Assembly: GCF_965641715.1 (NCBI RefSeq)
Contig: NZ_OZ282456.1
Length of the DNA stretch: 46,125 bases
From: Escherichia coli
Lineage (GTDB): Bacteria > Pseudomonadota > Gammaproteobacteria > Enterobacterales > Enterobacteriaceae
Strand: one strand, 5' to 3'
The notes beneath the pieces were generated by a model. It saw only the letters and a list, made by a program, of their open reading frames with translations. It ran no database searches and was not told where the DNA came from. The position numbers and the translations under genes are program-made. Shown piece by piece: positions 1 through 46,125 of this stretch (its first letter is position 1; every line of letters starts with the position of its first letter).

Positions 1-849
1 ATGGATAGACCAATGCAGTCTCTACGTTCAGCTTACGTTTGTAATTTGTCGCCGGAGTTCCAGCCTCCAAAGCACCATACGCACAAGCTGCCGCTGGTGT
101 TATCTGATGCTTTACAGCGCATTAATGGTCGTGATCTTACGTGTGAGGTTGCGTTCTACGTTAATCAACCGTCAGAGCGGAAGCGCCGGATAAACGAGCA
201 TCGTCGTCGGGCGATTAATGCTGTGATTGCTGCAATTTTGCACCATGTAAACATCATTTCTAAGCGGGTTCTGGCCAGTGCTGAGGCGTTGGCTGATTTT
301 TGCGGCCTGTCTACCGTATCCGAAGCTGGGAACAAGTCTATAACACGCTGTACAAGGGCGTTGTCGCAACTGAAAGCGTTAGGTTTTATTGATTATGAAC
401 GTCGCTGGGATCGGGTGAATAAACAGTATTGGCCAGCGAAAATAGAGATTCGTGATCAACTGCTGGAAACCGTTGGTATTACTGAACAAGCATGGAGACG
501 TGCGGTTAGCCAGAAACTTAATTACTTCAATGCGAAGAATAGCGAACGGCTTAAAAAAGCGATAACGGAGGCTGATTATAAGCGTATTGTTATTCAGGAG
601 CAGATGGAGAATGTATGGCGTCAGAGGAAGACGGCCAGAGAGATAAAGGCAAAACAGAAAGCAGCGGAGAGAGCTGCGCGTCTTGTTCGGGAAAAGGGAG
701 AGGCCGAACTTCGTCATCAAATCACTAGAGAGGTTAGCCAGGAATTTGCTGATGGCATGTATCCTGGAGCTGACCTTGCATATTTACGATCCCTCGTTGA
801 GCAGCGTTATAACAGGTTAAGAAAGACCTGGAAATCACTCCAGCATTAA
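1..849 (+). CDS. repA: Plasmid replication initiator RepA (IncFII RepA1-like)
   Basis: 282-aa ORF beginning at window position 1; central segment SITRCTRALSQLKALGFIDYERRWD resembles the IncFII RepA1 family as recalled; followed downstream by a DnaA box and AT-rich tract as in IncFII oriR. Confidence 0.7.
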   Translation: MDRPMQSLRSAYVCNLSPEFQPPKHHTHKLPLVLSDALQRINGRDLTCEVAFYVNQPSERKRRINEHRRRAINAVIAAILHHVNIISKRVLASAEALADFCGLSTVSEAGNKSITRCTRALSQLKALGFIDYERRWDRVNKQYWPAKIEIRDQLLETVGITEQAWRRAVSQKLNYFNAKNSERLKKAITEADYKRIVIQEQMENVWRQRKTAREIKAKQKAAERAARLVREKGEAELRHQITREVSQEFADGMYPGADLAYLRSLVEQRYNRLRKTWKSLQH

Positions 850-879: not shown

Positions 880-1110
880 GAGGATTATCTACGTCGCAAT
901 AAAATAGCTGTTCAAAAAACAATCTAAATTAATTTTCTCTAAACCTGAACACAGTAAAAATATCGCCTTTACAGGCATCGGCTAATAAAGTTATCCACAG
1001 TTTTGATATGTATATGCAAATGGTTTTTTATAATAGATGCACTAAACAAATAAATGCAAAATCACTTTCTTTTATTAAGACTTTCTTTATTTAACTTACG
1101 CAGGCTTTGC
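880..1110. promoter_or_regulatory. Candidate replication origin (oriR-like): perfect DnaA box TTATCCACA at 991-999 plus AT-rich tract 1000-1100
   Basis: Exact DnaA-box consensus about 140 bp after the repA stop, followed by about 100 bp of AT-rich sequence; no ORF. Confidence 0.45.
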
Positions 1111-3113: not shown

Positions 3114-3494
3114 ATGAGCATGATTAAAATCCGCAAAAACGCTTTCCTTAAAATTCAAACTATCCTGGCTGGTTCTGTTGGCGTGATTTGCCGTTCTTCC
3201 TCAAGCCGCATCGATGACTGCTACGATGATGAGTATCGTGTGTCCTCATGCGATGAGGCTTTAACCTGGCTGAAGGAGAATCAGGAACGTGCCCAGGTAT
3301 ATCTGGAAACAGAGAACGGCAATCAGATGCTGCGTATTAGCGGTCGTTATGGATTTGAAACTACATTCATGGCCTATTTTAATCAGGCTTACTTTGACAA
3401 GGAGTTGGCCTGGTACACTGATCGCATGAGCAAAAGCGAGCCAGCCCCGATTACACCGCCGAACAATAAACCATTTTTATTCCTCGTTAAGTAA
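3114..3494 (+). CDS. Hypothetical protein (driven by promoter-leader copy A)
   Basis: 126-aa ORF directly after the conserved leader and Shine-Dalgarno. Confidence 0.45.
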   Translation: MSMIKIRKNAFLKIQTILAGSVGVICRSSSSRIDDCYDDEYRVSSCDEALTWLKENQERAQVYLETENGNQMLRISGRYGFETTFMAYFNQAYFDKELAWYTDRMSKSEPAPITPPNNKPFLFLVK

Positions 3495-3502
3495 ACACAA
3501 TG

Positions 3503-3529
3503 CGCAAAGTGTCATTTTGACACTTTGCG
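3503..3529. promoter_or_regulatory. 27-bp perfect palindrome CGCAAAGTGTCA-TTT-TGACACTTTGCG; candidate operator
   Basis: 12-bp perfect inverted arms around a 3-bp centre, 29 bp upstream of an HTH regulator ATG; half-site copy AAAGTGTCATTTTGA at 12006-12020. Confidence 0.45.
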
Positions 3530-3557
3530 AGTGTTAATATTGTGCGAGGAGGGTGCT

Positions 3558-3830
3558 ATGACGGGTTATGAATTGAAATTATGGCGTCGTGGGATGAACT
3601 GGACGCAGGAGCGAGCCGCCGAAGAATTTGGGATATCGTTGGCTACATATAAGCGATATGAGAAGGGGGAGCCGCCGAGGGTCATTGAGATGGCCATTCG
3701 CGTTCTGTCGTTTGACGATATGGTGAAGGATCTTTCACACCTTGATAAAGATGCGATTCTGTTAAGGCTGCAAACCCTTGTATGGGAAAAGGTTAAAGTG
3801 TCGGCAGAATTGGAACAAGGGATCAAATGA
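3558..3830 (+). CDS. HTH (XRE-like) transcriptional regulator
   Basis: ATG at 3558 with GAGGAGGG upstream; HTH segment WTQERAAEEFGISLATYKRYEKGE; the track TTG start at 3525 lies inside the palindrome. Confidence 0.5.
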   Translation: MTGYELKLWRRGMNWTQERAAEEFGISLATYKRYEKGEPPRVIEMAIRVLSFDDMVKDLSHLDKDAILLRLQTLVWEKVKVSAELEQGIK

Positions 3831-3882
3831 TCCTTTACGGATCGTTTTATGGTGGTGTAATGTAAGCGCCAGAAAGACAAAA

Positions 3883-3905
3883 ACCGCCTTGCCGGGCGGT
3901 TTTCA
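3883..3905 (+). terminator. Rho-independent terminator (possibly bidirectional)
   Basis: ACCGCC-TTGCCG-GGCGGT hairpin followed by TTTT, preceded by an A-run. Confidence 0.45.
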
Positions 3906-4600
3906 GTCTGAAATTTAAATCTTGCTTGGTAGGCTGGATTTAAAAAGACACCTCTTGATTGGGGCGGCTTTCTTGCGTCTAAAGATAATCAAATCTTTTT
4001 GCGCCTGCAACCCCTTTTTTACTGGTGCCCATTTCAGACTCACGCTCGCGTCGTTGTCTTTGCCACTTCGTTGGGTTCGGTGTTTTTGGGCGAAGTGGCG
4101 CGCGGGTATGCGTACAAGGGGAAAGTGTGCTGACGCAAGCCAGGAACAGCGATCTAAACTAAGTCGAGTCTGAGAAAGGCAGGAGTGCGACAACTCGCCT
4201 GTGCTCTATGAGCAGAAGAAGGTATATCAGACGACCAATGGCATGATTGTGGGCCACAGGGCGCACACGGCGGCGAAGCATTGGAAACGATGTGGAGCTA
4301 TCTGGTGGCATGAGTTCCGGTACTCTATCTCGAGCTTTTTTTGATGCTTTTGAGAAGGGGCCGGAACTCCGGTAAAGGGCACCCTGTATGGGGGGAGGGG
4401 GGGTTGTGTCTGAAGGGTGGTTATCGGTTATGGTGGAATTATGATGCGTAGAAAAGCGAGTTTGCTGCAAGCTATTGGGTCCATTATTTCTTTGTTTCCG
4501 GCAGTTGATCATTTTCGTCATATGGCGACACGTTCCAGTATGGGCTTGGCGCGTGACGCTGACGCTATTCGAAAGGATTTTCAGAAAGTCTCTGGTGTTG

Positions 4601-5970: not shown

Positions 5971-6130
5971 TGTGATATCTCCAATATATGGAACTATCAC
6001 CGCCATTCGAGGCTAATCAAATGGTGGTGAGCCGTACAGGGTTAGCCTTACCGGACACAATGACGAACCGGCGCGGATTTCTCCGCCCCTGTACGACCCA
6101 CCATAATTTGGGCGTAACAGTGCTCTACGC

Positions 6131-6157
6131 ATAAAAAAACCGCTAACGCGGTATGCG
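6131..6157 (-). terminator. Candidate intrinsic terminator (minus strand) in the antirepressor leader
   Basis: ACCGC-TAAC-GCGGT hairpin with a 7-A run on the plus strand (T7 on the minus strand). Confidence 0.35.
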
Positions 6158-6298
6158 CCATCGTGTTATTCAGGAGGCTAATCCCGACCGTAGATTTTGC
6201 TACGGCTCGGAAAGTGTCCACCAATGGCGCATTCATGTCAATACGGCGGGATTTTAACAGAGACAACCACATAGCGTGGGTTTATTGGTAGGCAGAAA

Positions 6299-6333: not shown

Positions 6334-6715
6334 GCTGATCGGATTCGCGGTCCTTTCAGCATAACGTCGTTGTGTAAACAACCACGCAAGCACAAGCGGC
6401 GTATCTATTCTTACTCAACTGAGGTGAATAGTCCACTATTCATATAAAGAAATTTAGTTCCTTAGTTCATGCAGAATGAAGTTTTTTAACTTCTTCGGAT
6501 GTAATTACATGTAATAAAAGCAATTGTTATTCCTTCATTATGAAGGCGAGGACGTGTAATATGGCTTGGGGCCTTTTCGCCGATTCGCACCCGGGCACCG
6601 ACTTTAAGGAAAGGATCATCCACTTGCCGTACACGCAAGCACAAGCGGAGTGCTTGCTCTCGCGTCATTTTCGTCGGTGGAGATGCCGTGAAACGGCCTG
6701 TAAGGGCCACACAAT

Positions 6716-6836
6716 GAAAAAATACTGTATGTGTATTTTTATCGTTGTTACTGGAGCTTTGTTTACGCCACATGGGGAGGGTTGGAAGATTACTGATAAC
6801 GCTCTGAATGTGACGATAAACATTAGCAGCAAGTAG
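6716..6836 (+). CDS. Candidate small hydrophobic peptide (40 aa)
   Basis: MKKYCMCIFIVVTGALFTPHGEGWKITDNALNVTINISSK; AAGGG upstream of the ATG; terminator immediately downstream. Confidence 0.2.
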
Positions 6837-6841
6837 CGATT

Positions 6842-6864
6842 AGGCCCCTTCGGGGGCCTTTTTT
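6842..6864 (+). terminator. Rho-independent terminator
   Basis: AGGCCCC-TTCG-GGGGCCT hairpin followed by TTTTTT. Confidence 0.55.
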
Positions 6865-15812: not shown

Positions 15813-15888
15813 GGCCCCTTAGCTCAGTGGTTAGAGCAGGCGACTCATAATCGCACGGTCATCGGTTCAAATCCGGTAGGGGCCACCA
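15813..15888 (+). tRNA. tRNA with CAT anticodon (Met by anticodon; sequence resembles the lysidine-type tRNA-Ile2)
   Basis: Manual cloverleaf: 7-bp acceptor stem GGCCCCT/AGGGGCC, D-arm GCTC-AGTGGTTA-GAGC, anticodon loop CTCATAA, T-loop GGTTCAAATCC, 3' CCA encoded. Confidence 0.8.
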
Positions 15889-40746: not shown

Positions 40747-43065
40747 GTGAGTAAATTATTCTTTACGATGACTGACGCCGGGCGTCAGGAGCTGGTTAAT
40801 GCCAACAAAACAGGAACAAATAAAGTTGAGATTGTTTCTGTTGGTTTAGGTAGTAGATATTATGTCACGTCAACTTCACAAACAAATATAACAAACGAAA
40901 TAAAACGACTTACCACAATAGGTGGCAAAGTTGTTTCCCCTGATACAATTCATGTAACAGCGAAGGATGATAGTAAAGATGAGTATGTTGTCCATACAAT
41001 AGGATTGTATACGAATAAGGGTACGTTGTTTGCTGTATACTCACAAGAACAAGCAATAATAAATAAAGCATCATCTACTATCGCTTTAATATCAAGTGAT
41101 ATAGCAATTAAAACTCTTGATACTAAAAATATTACATTTGGTGATATTGAGTTTATTAATCCTCCCGCGACCGAAACTGTTGTTGGGGTGGCAAGGTTTG
41201 CTAATGAACAAGAAATTGATGCAGGTACAGATGATTCCCTTGCTGTTTCAGCAAAGCGGCTTAAGCAAGCCATTGTGAAACATGAGCAATCACGTAATCA
41301 TCCCGATGCAACTTTAACCTCAAAAGGCTTTGTTCAACTTAGCAGCGCCACCAATAGCTCGTCTGAAACGCTTGCTGCGACGCCTAAGGCTGTTAAGGCA
41401 GCATATGACCTGGCTAATGGCAAATACACCGCACAGGACGCTACCACGGCGCGAAAAGGGATTGTTCAGCTCAGTAGCGCCACTAACAGTGATTCGGAAA
41501 CGCTGGCCGCAACACCAAAGGCTGTTAAGGCAGCGTATGATCTTGCGGCCGGAAAGGCTCCGTCCAATCACACGCATTCGTGGGAGCAGATAACAAATGT
41601 GCCTGTAGCTTCACTGACAGTAAGGGGAATCACTCAGCTCAGTAGTGCAACCAACAGCACGTCTGAAACACTGGCCGCGACATCGAAAGCGGTAAAGGTG
41701 GTAATGGATGAAACGAACAAGAAAGCGCCCTTAAACAGTCCTGCGCTGACCGGAACGCCAACAACACCAACTGCGCCAAAAGGTACTAACAATACTCAGA
41801 TCGCAAGCACGGCTTATGTTATGGCTGCGATCGCTGCCCTCGTGGACTCGTCGCCTGACGCACTGAATACGCTGAACGAGCTGGCTGCGGCGTTGGGCAA
41901 CGACCCGAATTTTGCGACCACCATGACTAACGCGCTTGCGGGTAAGCAACCGAAAGATGCCACCCTGACGGCGCTGGCCGGGCTTGCTACTGCGGCAGAC
42001 AAGTTTCCGTATTTTACGGGGAATGATGTCGCCAGCCTGGCAACCCTGACAAAAGTCGGGCGGGATATTCTTGCGAAATCGACCGTTGCTGCCGTTATCG
42101 AATACCTCGGTTTGCAGGAAACGGTAAATCAGGCTTCTGGCGCATTACAGAAAAACCAGAACGGTGCAGATATTCCGAATAAAGATAAATTCATACAAAA
42201 CACAGGGGCCTGTCGTGCATTTAGCGGTCAGACTGATATCGATGGTTCACAAGGTGCATGGTCGACAGTTGCATTTATCTCGTGGCTGGAGAATAACGGA
42301 GCTTTCCGACATCCATACTGGATGTGTAAAGGGTCATGGTCCTATGCCAGAAACAGGGTTATTACGGATACCGGTTGTGGAAATATCTGCCTTGCCGGAG
42401 CCGTGATTGAGGTTATGGGAACCCGCGGCGCAATGACCATACGCGTTACCACGCCGAGCACGTCCAGCGGTGGCGGAATTACTAACGCTCAATTCACTTA
42501 TATTGATCATGGTGATGCTTATGCCCCCGGCTGGCGACGAGACTACAACACGAAAAACCAGCAGCCTGCATTTGCTTTAGGGCAAACAGGAAGCAGGGTT
42601 GCAAATGATAAAGCTGTTGGCTGGAACTGGAATAGCGGTGTTTATGATGCAGATATCAGCGGTGCATCGACATTAATCCTCCACTTCAATATGAATACGG
42701 GGAGCTGCCCTGCTGTACAGTTCCGCGTGAATTACAGGAACGGCGGTATTTTTTATCGTTCAGCGCGTGATGGTTATGGATTTGAGGCTAACTGGTCAGA
42801 GTTTTACACCACGACCCGCAAACCCTCTGCGGGAGATGTTGGTGCATACACGCAGGCAGAATGTAACTCAAGGTTTATTACAGGTATTCGCCTTGGCGGT
42901 CTGTCATCTGTTCAGACATGGAATGGTCCCGGCTGGTCTGACAGGTCAGGTTATGTCGTTACGGGTTCAGTTAACGGAAACCGTGATGAATTAATTGATA
43001 CAACTCAGGCAAGGCCAATTCAGTATTGCATTAATGGGACGTGGTATAACGCGGGGAGTATTTAA
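40747..43065 (+). CDS. Tail fibre protein (constant N-terminal part plus currently expressed variable C-terminal part)
   Basis: 772 aa; three copies of the fibre repeat [19 protein letters not shown]; crossover site inside the coding sequence at 42104-42128. Confidence 0.8.
42104..42128. other. Left inversion crossover site (gix/cix-like) inside the tail-fibre gene
   Basis: ACCTCGGTTTGCAGGAAACGGTAAA; matches the reverse complement of 45158-45182 at 24 of 25 positions. Confidence 0.7.
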
Positions 43066-43067
43066 TT

Positions 43068-43601
43068 ATGATGCACTTAAAAAATATTACTGCTGGCAAC
43101 CCTAAAACAAAAGAGCAATACCAGCTAACGAAACAATTTAACATCAAATGGCTTTATACAGAGGATGGGAAAAACTGGTATGAGGAACAAAAGAACTTTC
43201 AGCCTGATACGTTGAAAATGGTCTATGACCACAACAACGTTATTATTTGTATTGAAAAGGATGTTTCAGCAATTAATCCAGAAGGCGCAAGCGTCGTTGA
43301 GGTTCCTGATATTACAGCAAATCGCCGGGCTGATATTTCTGGTAAATGGATGTTCAAAGATGGCGTAGTGGTAAAGCGAACTTATACCGAGGAAGAGCAG
43401 AGGCAGCAGGCGGAAAATGAAAAGCAAAGCCTGCTACAGCTCGTTAGGGATAAAACCCAGCTATGGGACTCACAGCTACGGCTGGGCATCATTTCCGACG
43501 AGAATAAACAAAAATTAACCGAGTGGATGCTCTATGCGCAGAAAGTCGAATCTACAGACACCTCCAGCCTGCCAGTAACATTTCCCGAACAACCTGAATG
43601 A
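43068..43601 (+). CDS. Tail fibre assembly protein (current orientation)
   Basis: 177 aa; paralogous to the minus-strand 43630-44160 product (shared [13 protein letters not shown] and [12 protein letters not shown] segments). Confidence 0.7.
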
Positions 43602-43629
43602 GACAAGGCCCGATCGCGGGCCTTAATTT

Positions 43630-44160
43630 TTATTCAGGCTTTTGTGGCCATTCAGGATTTGCCGTATCCACACGGCTGACCAGAACACTGTAGCGTTCCC
43701 ATGCTTCCAGTCGTGTGCGTTCCTCGTCTGTTGCCATATTCAGCCTGACAGCGCGTTCCAGCGGCTGGATGACTGATTCAGCTTCGGAAAGCAATGCGGC
43801 CTTTTGTGATTCGCCTTGTTGTTGCTGTTCGTCTGCCGTATAAATCCGTTTAACTACAGCTCCATCCTTAAACATCCACTTTCCTGAATCATCAGCGCGG
43901 CGGTTGGCTGTAATATCAGGAACCTCAACGACGCTAAAACCTTCAGGGTTAAGCGTGGAGGCATCTTTAGTGATGGCGACAATAATATTATTTGCATCGT
44001 AAACAATCTTTATTGTGTCTGGCTGAAAGTTTTTCACTTCCTCATACCAGTTTTTATCGTCTTCGGACCATAACCAGATAACATCAAAATTCTTTGTTAG
44101 CTGATATTGTTCTTTCGTTTTAGGATTTCCAGACTTAATATTTTTTAAATGCTGCATCAT
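43630..44160 (-). CDS. Tail fibre assembly protein (alternative orientation)
   Basis: 176 aa; paralogue of 43068-43601 on the opposite strand. Confidence 0.7.
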
Positions 44161-45156
44161 TTACACCTGTGCGACGTTATACCATGTGCCATTGATGTAT
44201 TTTTGTATTGGCCTGAAGATGGCTTCATCATCGCCATCTACTTCACCAATGATTCTTAATCCGGTAATTGCGTGTCCGGCTTTTTCATAACGACCACCAC
44301 GCGCCATCAATTGAACAACTCGCGTACCCAGGCGAACATCTCTCACATATCTGGAATCAAAATTGCCATAGTTGCCAGGAATAACTTGCGAGCCACAAAG
44401 CCAGTTACCGTTATTGTCCATGTACGCCTGACCATCGGTGCCATTGGCTGTCCTTGAGTTATTAATCATGTAAAAACCAAACTGGTAGTTACCAAGTCCA
44501 CCGACAAAAAATTTGCGTTCTGCATGGTCTTGTCTTAACAAAGCCTGCGCAGAACTTGTTGATACTGCGTTTCTACCAAAAATGACATTCTGGTTTCGCA
44601 TATCAATCCATGAGGTTGAGCCACTATTAATAGCAAACCTGTTTGCATACACCCAGGCGTTAGTTGTTATATCTCCTGTAACATCCAGACCATGCCCCAT
44701 AGTTATGCGGCCAGTTCTGAGATTAAGCGTAAAGGGACGTAGTGGCCCTATATTACCATTTTCCCCCTCATTCTCTCGTGTAGGGATGATATGCAGGCAT
44801 TCTTCAGAACGGCGAAAAATGGCACCAAAAGATGAATTAAATATCCTCAGTGCATTGACTGTCGATATTTTTACTTCACTGCTGAAAAGAGCTTTAACAA
44901 GAACATACAAAGCATCCCATTTAAGATTCATCAGGTCTTTTGTTGTGGTGCTTTGTTTGCTTCTCCATTTGAAATATTCATTGCCGTTGTCGCCTGTCTC
45001 AAACCACATGTATGAATCAGTGTCACCATCGGCATCATTTTTAAATCCAATCTTCGCCCAGTCAGTATTTCGAATCCAGGCAAGGATTGAGTCATTTTCA
45101 AAAGTAAGCCCACCGGACAAAGTATCGCCATTTTTTTGCACGGCGTTACCAGCCCT
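44161..45156 (-). CDS. Alternative tail-fibre C-terminal segment (silent; no own start, would fuse to the constant part after inversion)
   Basis: Open minus-strand frame continues to the crossover site and encodes LGLQETVN there, identical to the plus-strand fibre at the left site. Confidence 0.65.
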   Translation of the reverse strand, partial: RAGNAVQKNGDTLSGGLTFENDSILAWIRNTDWAKIGFKNDADGDTDSYMWFETGDNGNEYFKWRSKQSTTTKDLMNLKWDALYVLVKALFSSEVKISTVNALRIFNSSFGAIFRRSEECLHIIPTRENEGENGNIGPLRPFTLNLRTGRITMGHGLDVTGDITTNAWVYANRFAINSGSTSWIDMRNQNVIFGRNAVSTSSAQALLRQDHAERKFFVGGLGNYQFGFYMINNSRTANGTDGQAYMDNNGNWLCGSQVIPGNYGNFDSRYVRDVRLGTRVVQLMARGGRYEKAGHAITGLRIIGEVDGDDEAIFRPIQKYINGTWYNVAQV

Positions 45157-45255: not shown

Positions 45256-45810
45256 ATGCAATATGGTTATGCGAGGGTGTCAACTTTTGACCAGAATTTG
45301 GAATTACAACTGGAGGCGCTCAGGAGTTTAGGATGTGACCGGATTTTTGAAGATAAAATATCCGGTGCTAAATCAAAACGACCAGGACTTGATAAGCTAC
45401 TTAAGGTGTTACAGCCGGGCGATACGGTTATTGTCTGGAAGCTGGACCGAATGGGGCGTTCTCTGATTCATCTTGTTGATTTACTTAACCATTTTTTATC
45501 AAACAACATTGAGTTTATTTCGATTACGGAAGGGATAAAAATTAGCACTTCAATTGGCCGCTTTGCCTACACGATGCTGAGTGCAGTCGCAGAGATGGAG
45601 CGGGAAAATATGATTGAAAGAACGCGTGCAGGATTGGCGGTGGCAAGGGCTAACGGCAGGATAGGAGGACGCCGCTCAAAATTGGCACCAGAGCAATGGG
45701 AACAGATCGGAAGGCTTATTGCGAATGGTGTTTCACGTAAGCGGATAGCGATTATCTTCGATGTTACCTTATCCACGCTTTACCGCAGGTTTCCGGCTGG
45801 GAATCATTGA
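45256..45810 (+). CDS. Serine recombinase, DNA invertase (Gin/Cin/Hin family)
   Basis: 184 aa; N-terminal YARVSTFDQNLELQ with catalytic Ser context, C-terminal HTH; adjacent to the invertible segment. Confidence 0.85.
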   Translation: MQYGYARVSTFDQNLELQLEALRSLGCDRIFEDKISGAKSKRPGLDKLLKVLQPGDTVIVWKLDRMGRSLIHLVDLLNHFLSNNIEFISITEGIKISTSIGRFAYTMLSAVAEMERENMIERTRAGLAVARANGRIGGRRSKLAPEQWEQIGRLIANGVSRKRIAIIFDVTLSTLYRRFPAGNH

Positions 45811-45941
45811 CTGGAGTTAGGCCAGTAGTATGATGCTCGCAAAACGAGATCCAATTTAGATCCTTTTACTGGTGGATTATCGTTCGATCAGTGAGAGACT
45901 TCGTGCATGACCGAAAGTGTTGTGGTAGAGTTCTCTTAAAA

Positions 45942-45956
45942 CCACGTAACGTGGTT
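45942..45956. promoter_or_regulatory. Operator-like inverted repeat ACCAC-GTAAC-GTGGT
   Basis: Same architecture as the immunity-region operators; between the invertase and the window end. Confidence 0.35.
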
Positions 45957-45994
45957 ATGATTGTGGGTGTCTGGTTGGAAAGTGACCAGATATG

Positions 45995-46028
45995 GAAACA
46001 AAAAGCCCGCAGATAAATCTGCGGGCTT
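45995..46028 (-). terminator. Rho-independent terminator (minus strand)
   Basis: Perfect 10-bp stem AAGCCCGCAG/CTGCGGGCTT, loop ATAAAT, with T-run on the minus strand. Confidence 0.55.
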
Positions 46029-46081
46029 CTTGCGACATCCACGGAAACAAAAACCAACAACAATCCATGGGCGCCTCGACA
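46029..46081 (-). ncRNA. Candidate short antisense RNA (CopA-like) ending at the 45995-46028 terminator
   Basis: Minus-strand -10 TATAAT at 46088-46093 with a weak -35 about 17 bp upstream; predicted transcript about 85 nt; only meaningful if the molecule is circular and this lies in the repA leader. Confidence 0.25.
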
Positions 46082-46125
46082 ACTCCCATTATACGTTGGT
46101 TTTCCGTGGACGCAAGAGCGAACAT

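Follow-up and report, generated by a model that had tools for sequence, protein, structure and literature searches.

A probable antisense copy-control RNA in the repA leader of an enterobacterial phage-plasmid

We analyzed the replication control region of a circular plasmid of Escherichia coli and found that the last 130 bases of the window (the whole stretch of DNA that was analyzed, 46,125 bp) very probably encode an antisense RNA of ~86 nt that limits plasmid copy number, as judged from sequence and conservation. The explanation that best fits the observations as a whole, and that we regard as likely, is a replicon of the IncFII/IncL-M family that resides on a phage-plasmid and is under putative antisense control. 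The predicted transcription unit and its fold of two stem-loops are kept, with compensatory changes, in relatives with 60-85% RepA identity, which suggests, with good probability, that an antisense negative regulator of repA exists. How such an RNA would act is a more tentative matter: folding models point to an induced sequestration of the repA start region, a reading to which we give somewhat less than even credence.

Results

The window is a circular phage-plasmid with an IncFII-family repA

The window corresponds, after rotation and reverse complementation, to the whole of the E. coli plasmid pRHB38-C13_5 (CP055628.1). The initial annotation had proposed a copy-control RNA at the window end on condition that the molecule is circular, and this circularity was borne out: a query across the end-to-start junction matched CP055628.1 as one unbroken stretch with 100% identity, and the junction was also contiguous in 54 other plasmids (46-52 kb; Escherichia, Salmonella, and Klebsiella; 95-99.5% identity) and in three Yersinia phage genomes. 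Because the window is circular, its end (45811-46125) is the leader of repA. We found this 315-nt leader in 70 out of 5,426 complete E. coli genomes, where it was plasmid-borne in all instances and chromosomal in none. The gene content is that of a phage-plasmid (contractile tail, invertible tail-fibre segment, terminase, portal, and ParA/ParB-family and RepA proteins). Phage-plasmids of this family occur in ~1.3% of complete E. coli genomes, one carrier of the replicon being the reference strain ATCC 25922, and also in Salmonella, Klebsiella, E. albertii, E. fergusonii, and phages isolated on Yersinia pestis. The pSLy3 group falls within the SSU5 supergroup and hence within a different family. 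MOB-suite, as given by PLSDB, assigns no replicon type to these plasmids, and our full-text literature searches returned no account of the replicon itself or of how it is controlled. A co-residence test was uninformative, since in the sole two-copy plasmid record examined the ATCC 25922 plasmid had been assembled as a head-to-tail dimer.

To describe the replicon, we use the following features.

13..849, plus strand: repA, 278 aa from the conserved start and 282 aa from the ATG at position 1, ATG(1) (Pfam, NCBIfam, start conservation, and GenBank)
45807..45834, plus strand: probable repA promoter, TTGACT, 16-bp spacer, TATGAT (10 of 12 in the promoter scan; both groups of relatives)
991..999, plus strand: DnaA box TTATCCACA, matching the consensus, 142 nt past the repA stop and beside an A+T-rich stretch (sequence reading)

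RepA matches Pfam IncFII_repA (PF02387; E 9.9e-44) and the NCBIfam equivalog RepA_IncFII_LM, for which it scores 232 bits against a cut-off of 70 with the full profile length covered. It scores only 79 bits against TIGR03474 incFII_RepA (cut-off 447), which places it in the broad IncFII family and not in the IncFII equivalog, and it is ~30% identical to the classical IncFII RepA over part of the length. The window was initially described as beginning at the repA ATG. ATG(1) is indeed in frame here, but it is ATG(13) that is kept as the start across relatives and annotated in GenBank; in six relatives ATG(1) is out of frame and opens ORFs of 13-114 codons. We rejected the 326-aa RepA of RefSeq (start equivalent to 45992, reading through the terminator hairpin described below) because indels of 2-5 nt in a mutational hotspot shift the frame between near-identical plasmids, and because the annotated starts vary by record. 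The repA promoter occurs in both groups of relatives as TTGAC... with TATCAT, TATGAT, or TAGAAT, and it forms the left edge of the conserved replicon module, given that the genes upstream of it differ between relatives. Downstream of repA, the region of the DnaA box is the probable replication origin, judging by its sequence, in a layout that we take to resemble oriR of the IncFII plasmid R1.

We compared the window with loci, including upstream DNA, of RepA homologues with 81-85% and 60-63% identity, to which DNA-pattern scans added viral and metagenomic copies. Group 1, which includes the window, comprises 21 distinct sequences, and group 2 comprises 8 distinct sequences with a RepA ~60% identical to that of the window. 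In group 2, the module precedes an extra ORF of 158-162 aa that is similar to RepA in its N-terminal part, with an ATGA overlap between this ORF and the start of repA. A pattern scan of genome contigs gave a further 18 matches, the flanks of which have no similarity to the leader, and these were treated as chance.

A predicted antisense transcription unit is conserved in the repA leader

The following features lie on the minus strand of the leader.

46088..46115, minus strand: antisense promoter, -35 TTGCGT (46115-46110), 16-bp spacer, -10 TATAAT (46093-46088) (sequence and conservation)
45996..46083, minus strand: predicted antisense RNA gene (countertranscript), 85-88 nt (-10 box and terminator U-run)
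46076..46083, minus strand: single-stranded 5' tail GUUGUCGA, 8 nt, unpaired in every predicted fold
46034..46075, minus strand: stem-loop SL1, stem GGCG.CCAUGGA / UCCGUGG.UGUC, loop 46063-46046 (covariation and RNAalifold)
45998..46033, minus strand: stem-loop SL2, intrinsic terminator of the antisense RNA with stem, UUUA loop, and U tail (inverted repeat and fold)

The minus-strand TATAAT and weak -35 of the initial annotation are both present, the best -35 candidate (TTGCGT) matching the consensus in 3 out of 6 positions. A consensus promoter scan did not list this promoter, because the weak -35 falls below the scan threshold. A lone TATAAT has a chance expectation of ~0.13 in 266 bp; it is meaningful here because it is invariant and stands at a fixed distance from the terminator in relatives that were found via RepA rather than via the motif. 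Specifically, all members found via RepA share the minus-strand TATAAT, the sequence GCCTCGACAAC immediately downstream, and, at a distance of 80-90 nt, a hairpin with its U-run on the minus strand. In group 2, the promoter reads TTGCAT, 18-bp spacer, TATAAT.

The strong terminator claimed at 45995-46028 is also present, with slightly shifted coordinates (arms 45999-46014 / 46017-46032), and ViennaRNA folds it into a 16-bp stem. On the minus strand, this hairpin is followed by UUUUUGUUU, on the plus strand only by CUUCUUGCG, and in both groups a U-run 3' of the hairpin is found on the minus strand only. The hairpin at 45999-46032 was not flagged by a simple terminator scan, probably because the A-tract pairs with the U-tract and thereby extends the stem. 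We took the misses of the two scans as a limit of their criteria and not as absence, and relied on folding and conservation. The predicted RNA runs from ~46083 or 46080 to ~45996, and its 85-88 nt agree with the ~85 nt from promoter to terminator first estimated. RefSeq annotates no RNA in the leader.

The predicted antisense RNA has a conserved fold of two stem-loops

The 88-nt antisense RNA folds with a minimum free energy of -41 kcal/mol (z = -6.9; 0 out of 200 shuffles as good). A common architecture, consisting of a 5' tail, SL1 with a variable loop, and the terminator stem-loop, was predicted in 23 out of 23 distinct variants from the two diverged groups, and the RNAalifold consensus on the group 1 alignment gave the same structure. 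The 5' tail is near-invariant in both groups (GUUGUCGA, with GGUGUCGA in L007 and L015) and, together with GGCG of the weak lower SL1 stem (46075-46072), is complementary to an apical loop of the repA mRNA at 46072-46084. SL1 carries a U/G-rich loop of 13-20 nt; across the individual folds of group 1, its stem has 10-11 pairs and its loop ~5-20 nt, and in group 2 the stem is longer and interrupted. Its two arms have changed together in several relatives: CCAUGG/CCGUGG has become CCAUAG/CUGUGG in L003 and CCAUAGAGGUUU/GGAUUUCUGUGG in L015, and L007 carries a matched insertion in both arms (CCAUUGG/CCGGUGG).

For SL1, 97% of cells were paired and three pairs had changed on both sides; for SL2, all cells were paired, with one compensatory A-U to G-C pair in 5 out of 16 sequences. 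Across the whole antisense fold, the paired cells reached 98.8%, percentages that are inflated because the fold, like that of the mRNA hairpin below, was derived by folding these same sequences. Four pairs had changed on both sides (only 3-4 such pairs per structure), and 0 out of 500 shuffles reached the covariation score, which is not a probability given that the variants are related. Slid controls gave only 45-52% pairing. Three SL1 pairs (columns 10-52, 12-50, and 17-45) are always or nearly always G.U, which on the plus strand would be a C.A mismatch, arguing that the SL1 stem belongs to a minus-strand RNA. This wobble asymmetry is the main evidence that separates the antisense stem from the mRNA hairpin, because the left arm, its SL1 partner, and the right arm covary jointly, so that the support for the one is not fully independent of the support for the other.

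The repA mRNA forms a long hairpin with a hypervariable segment

On the plus strand, the same region is predicted to fold into a long hairpin of the repA mRNA, hairpin H, preceded by two shorter elements.

45940..45956, no strand assigned: palindrome AACCACGT-A-ACGTGGTT, an operator or a 7-bp RNA hairpin (inverted-repeat search)
45970..45990, plus strand: leader hairpin P, TCTGGT / ACCAGA (alignment read by eye)
46027..46118, plus strand: hairpin H of the repA mRNA (fold z = -6.4; covariation)
46027-34 / 46111-18, plus strand: base of H
46038-44 / 46104-10, plus strand: lower stem of H
46050-58 / 46095-46103, plus strand: upper stem of H
46067..46089, plus strand: apical stem-loop of H, AUGGG / CCCAU (46067-71 / 46085-89) with the 13-nt loop CGCCUCGACAACU (folds)
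46045..46064, no strand assigned: hypervariable segment common to the antisense SL1 loop and the internal loop of H in the mRNA (haplotype alignment)

An imperfect inverted repeat had been noted at 46031-46115. It is real and extends further than that, with 46027-46058 pairing with 46095-46118 (z = -6.4). Among 20 distinct group 1 sequences, 97.4% of the cells of H were paired, three pairs had changed on both sides, and 0 out of 500 shuffles reached the covariation score; the U.G wobbles of H are valid on the plus strand only. Group 2 keeps the stem with an entirely different sequence (TTGTCAGCC/GGCTGACAA and GCCACAC/GTGTGGC) and has an apical stem AUCG/CGAU with C-G in place of G-C as its third pair. 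A perfect 16-bp H stem is formed by the ATCC 25922 allele and also, from a differing sequence, by L007, and when the arms were swapped between variants, the cognate pairs were the most stable (diagonal -28.9, -31.7, and -35.8 kcal/mol). The antisense -10 box lies near the top of H, where it overlaps the 3' side of the apical stem, and thus the target that the antisense RNA mirrors is confined to the left arm of H together with its internal and apical loops. Within this target, the complement of the SL1 loop is formed by the internal loop and the upper part of the left arm.

Upstream of H, the operator-like site first placed at 45942-45956 was recovered as a perfect palindrome at 45940-45956. 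Its arms are invariant in group 1, with three variable central nucleotides, and at the corresponding position group 2 reads CTAC-AAAAC-GTAG, a change that is symmetric. In hairpin P, pairing is kept despite sequence change (GTTGAC/GUCAGC in L003 and GTTGGCA/TGCCGAC in L016) and the U.G wobbles are valid on the plus strand only, both as read by eye.

The loop shared by the two RNAs is a mutation hotspot. Among 18 E. coli-type haplotypes of near-identical plasmids (~570 aligned columns), 46045-46064 has at least 10 alleles and holds 13 variable columns and every internal indel, and the columns from 46065 through position 16 are invariant. The hotspot is single-stranded in both predicted RNAs. 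In IncFII and ColE1-type plasmids, such a hypervariable single-stranded segment is expected of the determinant of antisense specificity and incompatibility, and the loop would likewise set which of these plasmids are mutually incompatible. Alternatively, the variability could come from slippage alone in the A/C-rich (CAA)n simple sequence.

A proposed mode of action and its alternatives

We propose that repA is transcribed rightward from 45807-45834 with a leader of ~285 nt, within which the convergent minus-strand promoter would give an untranslated RNA of ~86 nt that ends at the terminator (46033-45996). This antisense RNA is fully complementary to the leader and would regulate RepA synthesis negatively and according to dosage, and thereby also copy number and incompatibility. 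Pairing would begin at single strands, with the SL1 loop contacting the internal loop of H and the 5' tail contacting the apical loop, and as it spread it would displace the left arm from H. Once released, the right arm (46095-46110) could pair with a repeat of the left arm, imperfect in sequence, that reaches from ATG(1) to ATG(13), which would bury the repA initiation region and lower translation. This repeat, segment D, crosses the junction of the window.

46120..46125, plus strand: segment D, first part, repeating the left arm of H imperfectly in direct orientation and able to pair with the right arm, 46095-46110 (target-blocked folds)
1..15, plus strand: segment D, second part, comprising ATG(1) and the 12 nt before ATG(13) (target-blocked folds)

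When we blocked the antisense target in silico, the right arm paired with the segment from 46120 to 15 in every variant of both groups, with duplex energies of -11 to -15 kcal/mol. Shuffling the start segment gave p = 0.016-0.11 per variant, for variants that are not independent. With the target blocked, the predicted accessibility of the 12 nt before ATG(13) dropped in 7 out of 8 variants. The motif AAGAG (46114-46118) is buried in the free H and exposed once the target is blocked; if it functions as the Shine-Dalgarno sequence, the effect of antisense binding could be a different one. Attenuation of transcription as in pT181 was rejected, since the alternative hairpin is followed by no U-run. 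An extension of this proposal, which we put forward as a speculative and rather doubtful one, is that these RNAs form an undescribed countertranscript family that controls RepA of the IncFII/IncL-M type by a three-segment RNA switch, in which the left arm and the start-codon repeat would compete for the right arm, the antisense RNA would remove the left arm, and the hypervariable loop would serve as an incompatibility barcode.

The main alternative to induced sequestration is a direct effect of the duplex, in which the antisense RNA would repress repA in the manner of CopA, by direct ribosome block, RNase III cleavage, or interference of convergent transcription with the repA promoter, and not by refolding. 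The evidence from the promoter, the terminator, and the fold applies equally to this explanation, the statistical support for the alternative hairpin is modest, and the greater rather than lesser exposure of AAGAG on blocking is in its favor. However, the antisense 5' end lies ~30 nt before AAGAG and ~55 nt before ATG(13), a distance too great for simple steric hindrance as in R1, whose antisense duplex ends 2 nt from the tap ribosome-binding site. Direct duplex effects also give no reason why a start-codon repeat of the left arm is found in both groups with differing sequences, and overall we consider them unlikely.

Two further explanations dispense with a regulatory antisense RNA. The conserved block could be a cis-acting structure of the repA mRNA that serves stability, translational control, or protein binding, with TATAAT being incidental. 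H is clearly an mRNA structure, the antisense promoter has a weak -35 and was not called, and a single TATAAT in 266 bp is not rare. Yet a purely cis-acting structure would not account for a U-run confined to the minus-strand side of the hairpin in both groups, where no upstream minus-strand gene needs a terminator, nor for a covarying SL1 stem with G.U pairs that are mismatches on the plus strand, nor for TATAAT and its distance from the terminator being kept in group 2 despite different surrounding stems; we therefore judge it improbable. Still less probable, to the point of being very nearly negligible, is a role of the 45999-46032 hairpin as no more than a terminator or insulator, which would shield the replicon from read-through of the tail-fibre and invertase genes or partially attenuate the repA transcript. 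The hairpin is a strong one and is found on the plus strand as well, where it is followed by CUUCUU and partial termination is possible, but the plus-strand tail is U-poor, and the upstream gene, which is separated from the hairpin by a conserved promoter, varies between relatives while the hairpin travels with repA.

Discussion

Taken as an antisense regulator with a probable role in copy control, the RNA would matter for this phage-plasmid family in several ways. A defined copy-control RNA would explain incompatibility and co-residence within the family, its hypervariable loop would serve as a typing marker, and its recognition would correct the recurrent mis-annotation of repA. If the barcode proposal is true, the hypervariable loop would let closely related phage-plasmids escape each other's copy control. 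The predicted RNA is also a candidate RNA family for public libraries.

Comparison with known antisense systems

Antisense control of repA is a known principle, but the predicted RNA matches no described family. By its sequence features, the element would work like a CopA/RNAI countertranscript and is not a member of those RNA families. The initial annotation had likened it to CopA, and this likeness holds for position and length, with a minus-strand promoter and terminator of the right size inside the leader of an IncFII-family repA, and for the probable role; it does not hold for family membership. Rfam CopA (RF00042; gathering score 60 bits) gave no match at E <= 10 in 45700-46125, and neither CopA nor PK-repBA matched at the gathering threshold anywhere in the window, whereas a classical IncF plasmid used as positive control (L065) matched CopA with 99.1 bits, beside annotated tap and regulatory repA genes. 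Membership in a known RNA family was rejected more generally, as Rfam gave only sub-threshold matches driven by the terminator (Thr_leader and the CsrC tail). PK-repBA (RF01089) likewise had no match in the window, L007, L011, or L018. It did match the outgroups L006 (49.3 bits; RepA identity 63%) and L066 (56.7 bits; 37%) above its gathering score of 45, with a weak match to CopA; for the window and both groups there was no match to either model. Since these nearest outside relatives of RepA carry PK-repBA, antisense control is the norm in this RepA clade.

With CopA/CopT of R1 and NR1, the window shares, at the level of sequence, a RepA of the same Pfam family, an untranslated RNA of ~90 nt that is convergent inside the repA leader, two stem-loops of which the second doubles as terminator, a DnaA box downstream of repA, and, as far as the sequence suggests, a probable role in negative copy-number control and incompatibility. 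Unlike CopA/CopT, the window RNA has no match to the CopA model, and its leader has no conserved tap-like peptide, no copB, and no UUGGCG. Specifically, no small ORF is conserved as a tap-like leader peptide when the ORFs from ATG(1) and from the ATG at 46067, which is CTG in L012-L014, are compared across relatives; nothing is annotated at the copB position between the promoter at 45807-45834 and repA, where the sole plus-strand ORF (41 aa) crosses the small-indel sites of relatives; and the window leader lacks the target-loop motif 5'-UUGGCG-3', which the outgroup L006 does carry in its target loop. The window RNA also mirrors the left arm of its target hairpin and not the whole hairpin.

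The IncL/M plasmid pMU604 and the IncB, IncI-alpha, IncK, and IncZ plasmids (PK-repBA and PK-repZ) have, like the window, a RepA of RepA_IncFII_LM. The logic of their RNAI and pseudoknot is shared in that antisense pairing prevents a long-range mRNA interaction needed for repA translation. Unlike these plasmids, the window and its relatives have no PK-repBA match, no leader peptide, and no pseudoknot from a loop to a distal site; in place of the pseudoknot, the folding models give the window leader a long hairpin to which the start codons offer an alternative partner.

More distant systems resemble the proposal in mechanism. RNAII of pMV158 is a small antisense RNA with a single-stranded 5' tail that starts pairing and a terminator hairpin as its main structure (PMC4485353); unlike the window, pMV158 is a rolling-circle plasmid, and the RNAII target is directly beside the repB initiation signals. 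In mechanism, the nearest analogue is RNAI of the staphylococcal plasmid pSK41 (Kwong et al., 2006, as reviewed in PMC5703833). That antisense RNA combines two stem-loops with a 5' tail, and its binding site in the leader lies well before the initiation region; binding is proposed to bring about a stem-loop in which the rep ribosome-binding site is sequestered. The initiator (RepA_N family) and the host of pSK41 are unrelated to those of the window, and its RNAI has no sequence similarity to the window, in whose leader the refolding is a prediction. If this refolding is true, it would be an enterobacterial instance of antisense-triggered refolding, within a clade of RepA for which the mechanisms known otherwise are CopA/tap and RNAI/pseudoknot control.

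Known RNA families on the plasmid, and elements of the repA leader

The whole plasmid, including the control module (the predicted minus-strand antisense RNA and the hairpins of the repA mRNA leader), was searched against Rfam, and the following matches scored above the gathering score:

6020-6108, minus strand: C4 antisense RNA
6133-6206, minus strand: isrK
6567-6864, plus strand: ryfA
15813-15885, plus strand: tRNA

C4 antisense RNA is of the P1/P7 immunity type. Known families are therefore detectable elsewhere on the plasmid, yet this search recognised none in the repA leader. Between the repA promoter and the predicted antisense gene, the leader carries two further elements:

45848-45851 and 45859-45862: two GATC (Dam) sites, 11 nt apart, directly 3' of the repA promoter -10
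45970-45990: leader hairpin TCTGGT/ACCAGA, with plus-strand U.G wobbles

A cluster of two to three GATC sites is kept at the same position in both groups of relatives (group 1, which includes this plasmid, and group 2, whose RepA is about 60% identical to that of this plasmid), and may couple repA transcription to the post-replication methylation state. The pairing of the leader hairpin survives complete sequence replacement in relatives, and its U.G wobbles are valid on the plus strand only.

Start of repA and the extra reading frame in group 2

The annotated start of repA differs among records (45992-46125 plus 1-15 in the window; 3493-4473 in the related locus L002), giving proteins of 326 aa (RefSeq), 282 aa and 278 aa. 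The 326-aa frame, which passes through the terminator hairpin of the predicted antisense RNA, represents a RepA protein cluster of 525 member sequences. We rejected this long form as an annotation artefact, because indels in the hypervariable segment of the leader shift its frame.

In group 2, an extra reading frame of 158-162 aa lies between the control module and repA:

L008, 2528-3004; L011, 2516-3004; also in L009 and L010: extra ORF

Its product gives a Pfam IncFII_repA match and is similar to the N-terminal region of RepA; the ORF overlaps the repA start via ATGA. In this group, the antisense module would control the extra ORF and, via translational coupling, repA.

Neighbouring regions

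About 1.5 kb downstream of repA, at 2306-2958, are genes for a RelE/ParE-family toxin and an XRE-family antitoxin. Another neighbouring region holds an invertible segment:

43012-44214 and 45256-45810: invertible tail-fibre segment

The repeats (43012-43051 and 44175-44214) enclose tail-fibre assembly genes in opposite orientations, and a Hin/Cin-type recombinase gene adjoins the segment. The 94-kb record of ATCC 25922 joins two plasmid copies head to tail as a dimer assembly, and the arrangement of the tail-fibre region differs between them.

Comparison with IncFII and IncL/M replicons

Beyond repA we observed:

991-999: perfect DnaA box TTATCCACA, 142 nt 3' of the repA stop, followed by an A+T-rich stretch

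Together these are the probable replication origin, in a layout like that of the IncFII oriR. The nearest RepA relatives outside the control-module family, L006 and L066 (63% and 37% identity), carry a different type of leader, matched by Rfam PK-repBA:

L006, 2863-2989; L066, 1350-1469: IncL/M-type control region

The UUGGCG target loop can be read in L006. Thus, at least three distinct leader architectures are used within one RepA clade.
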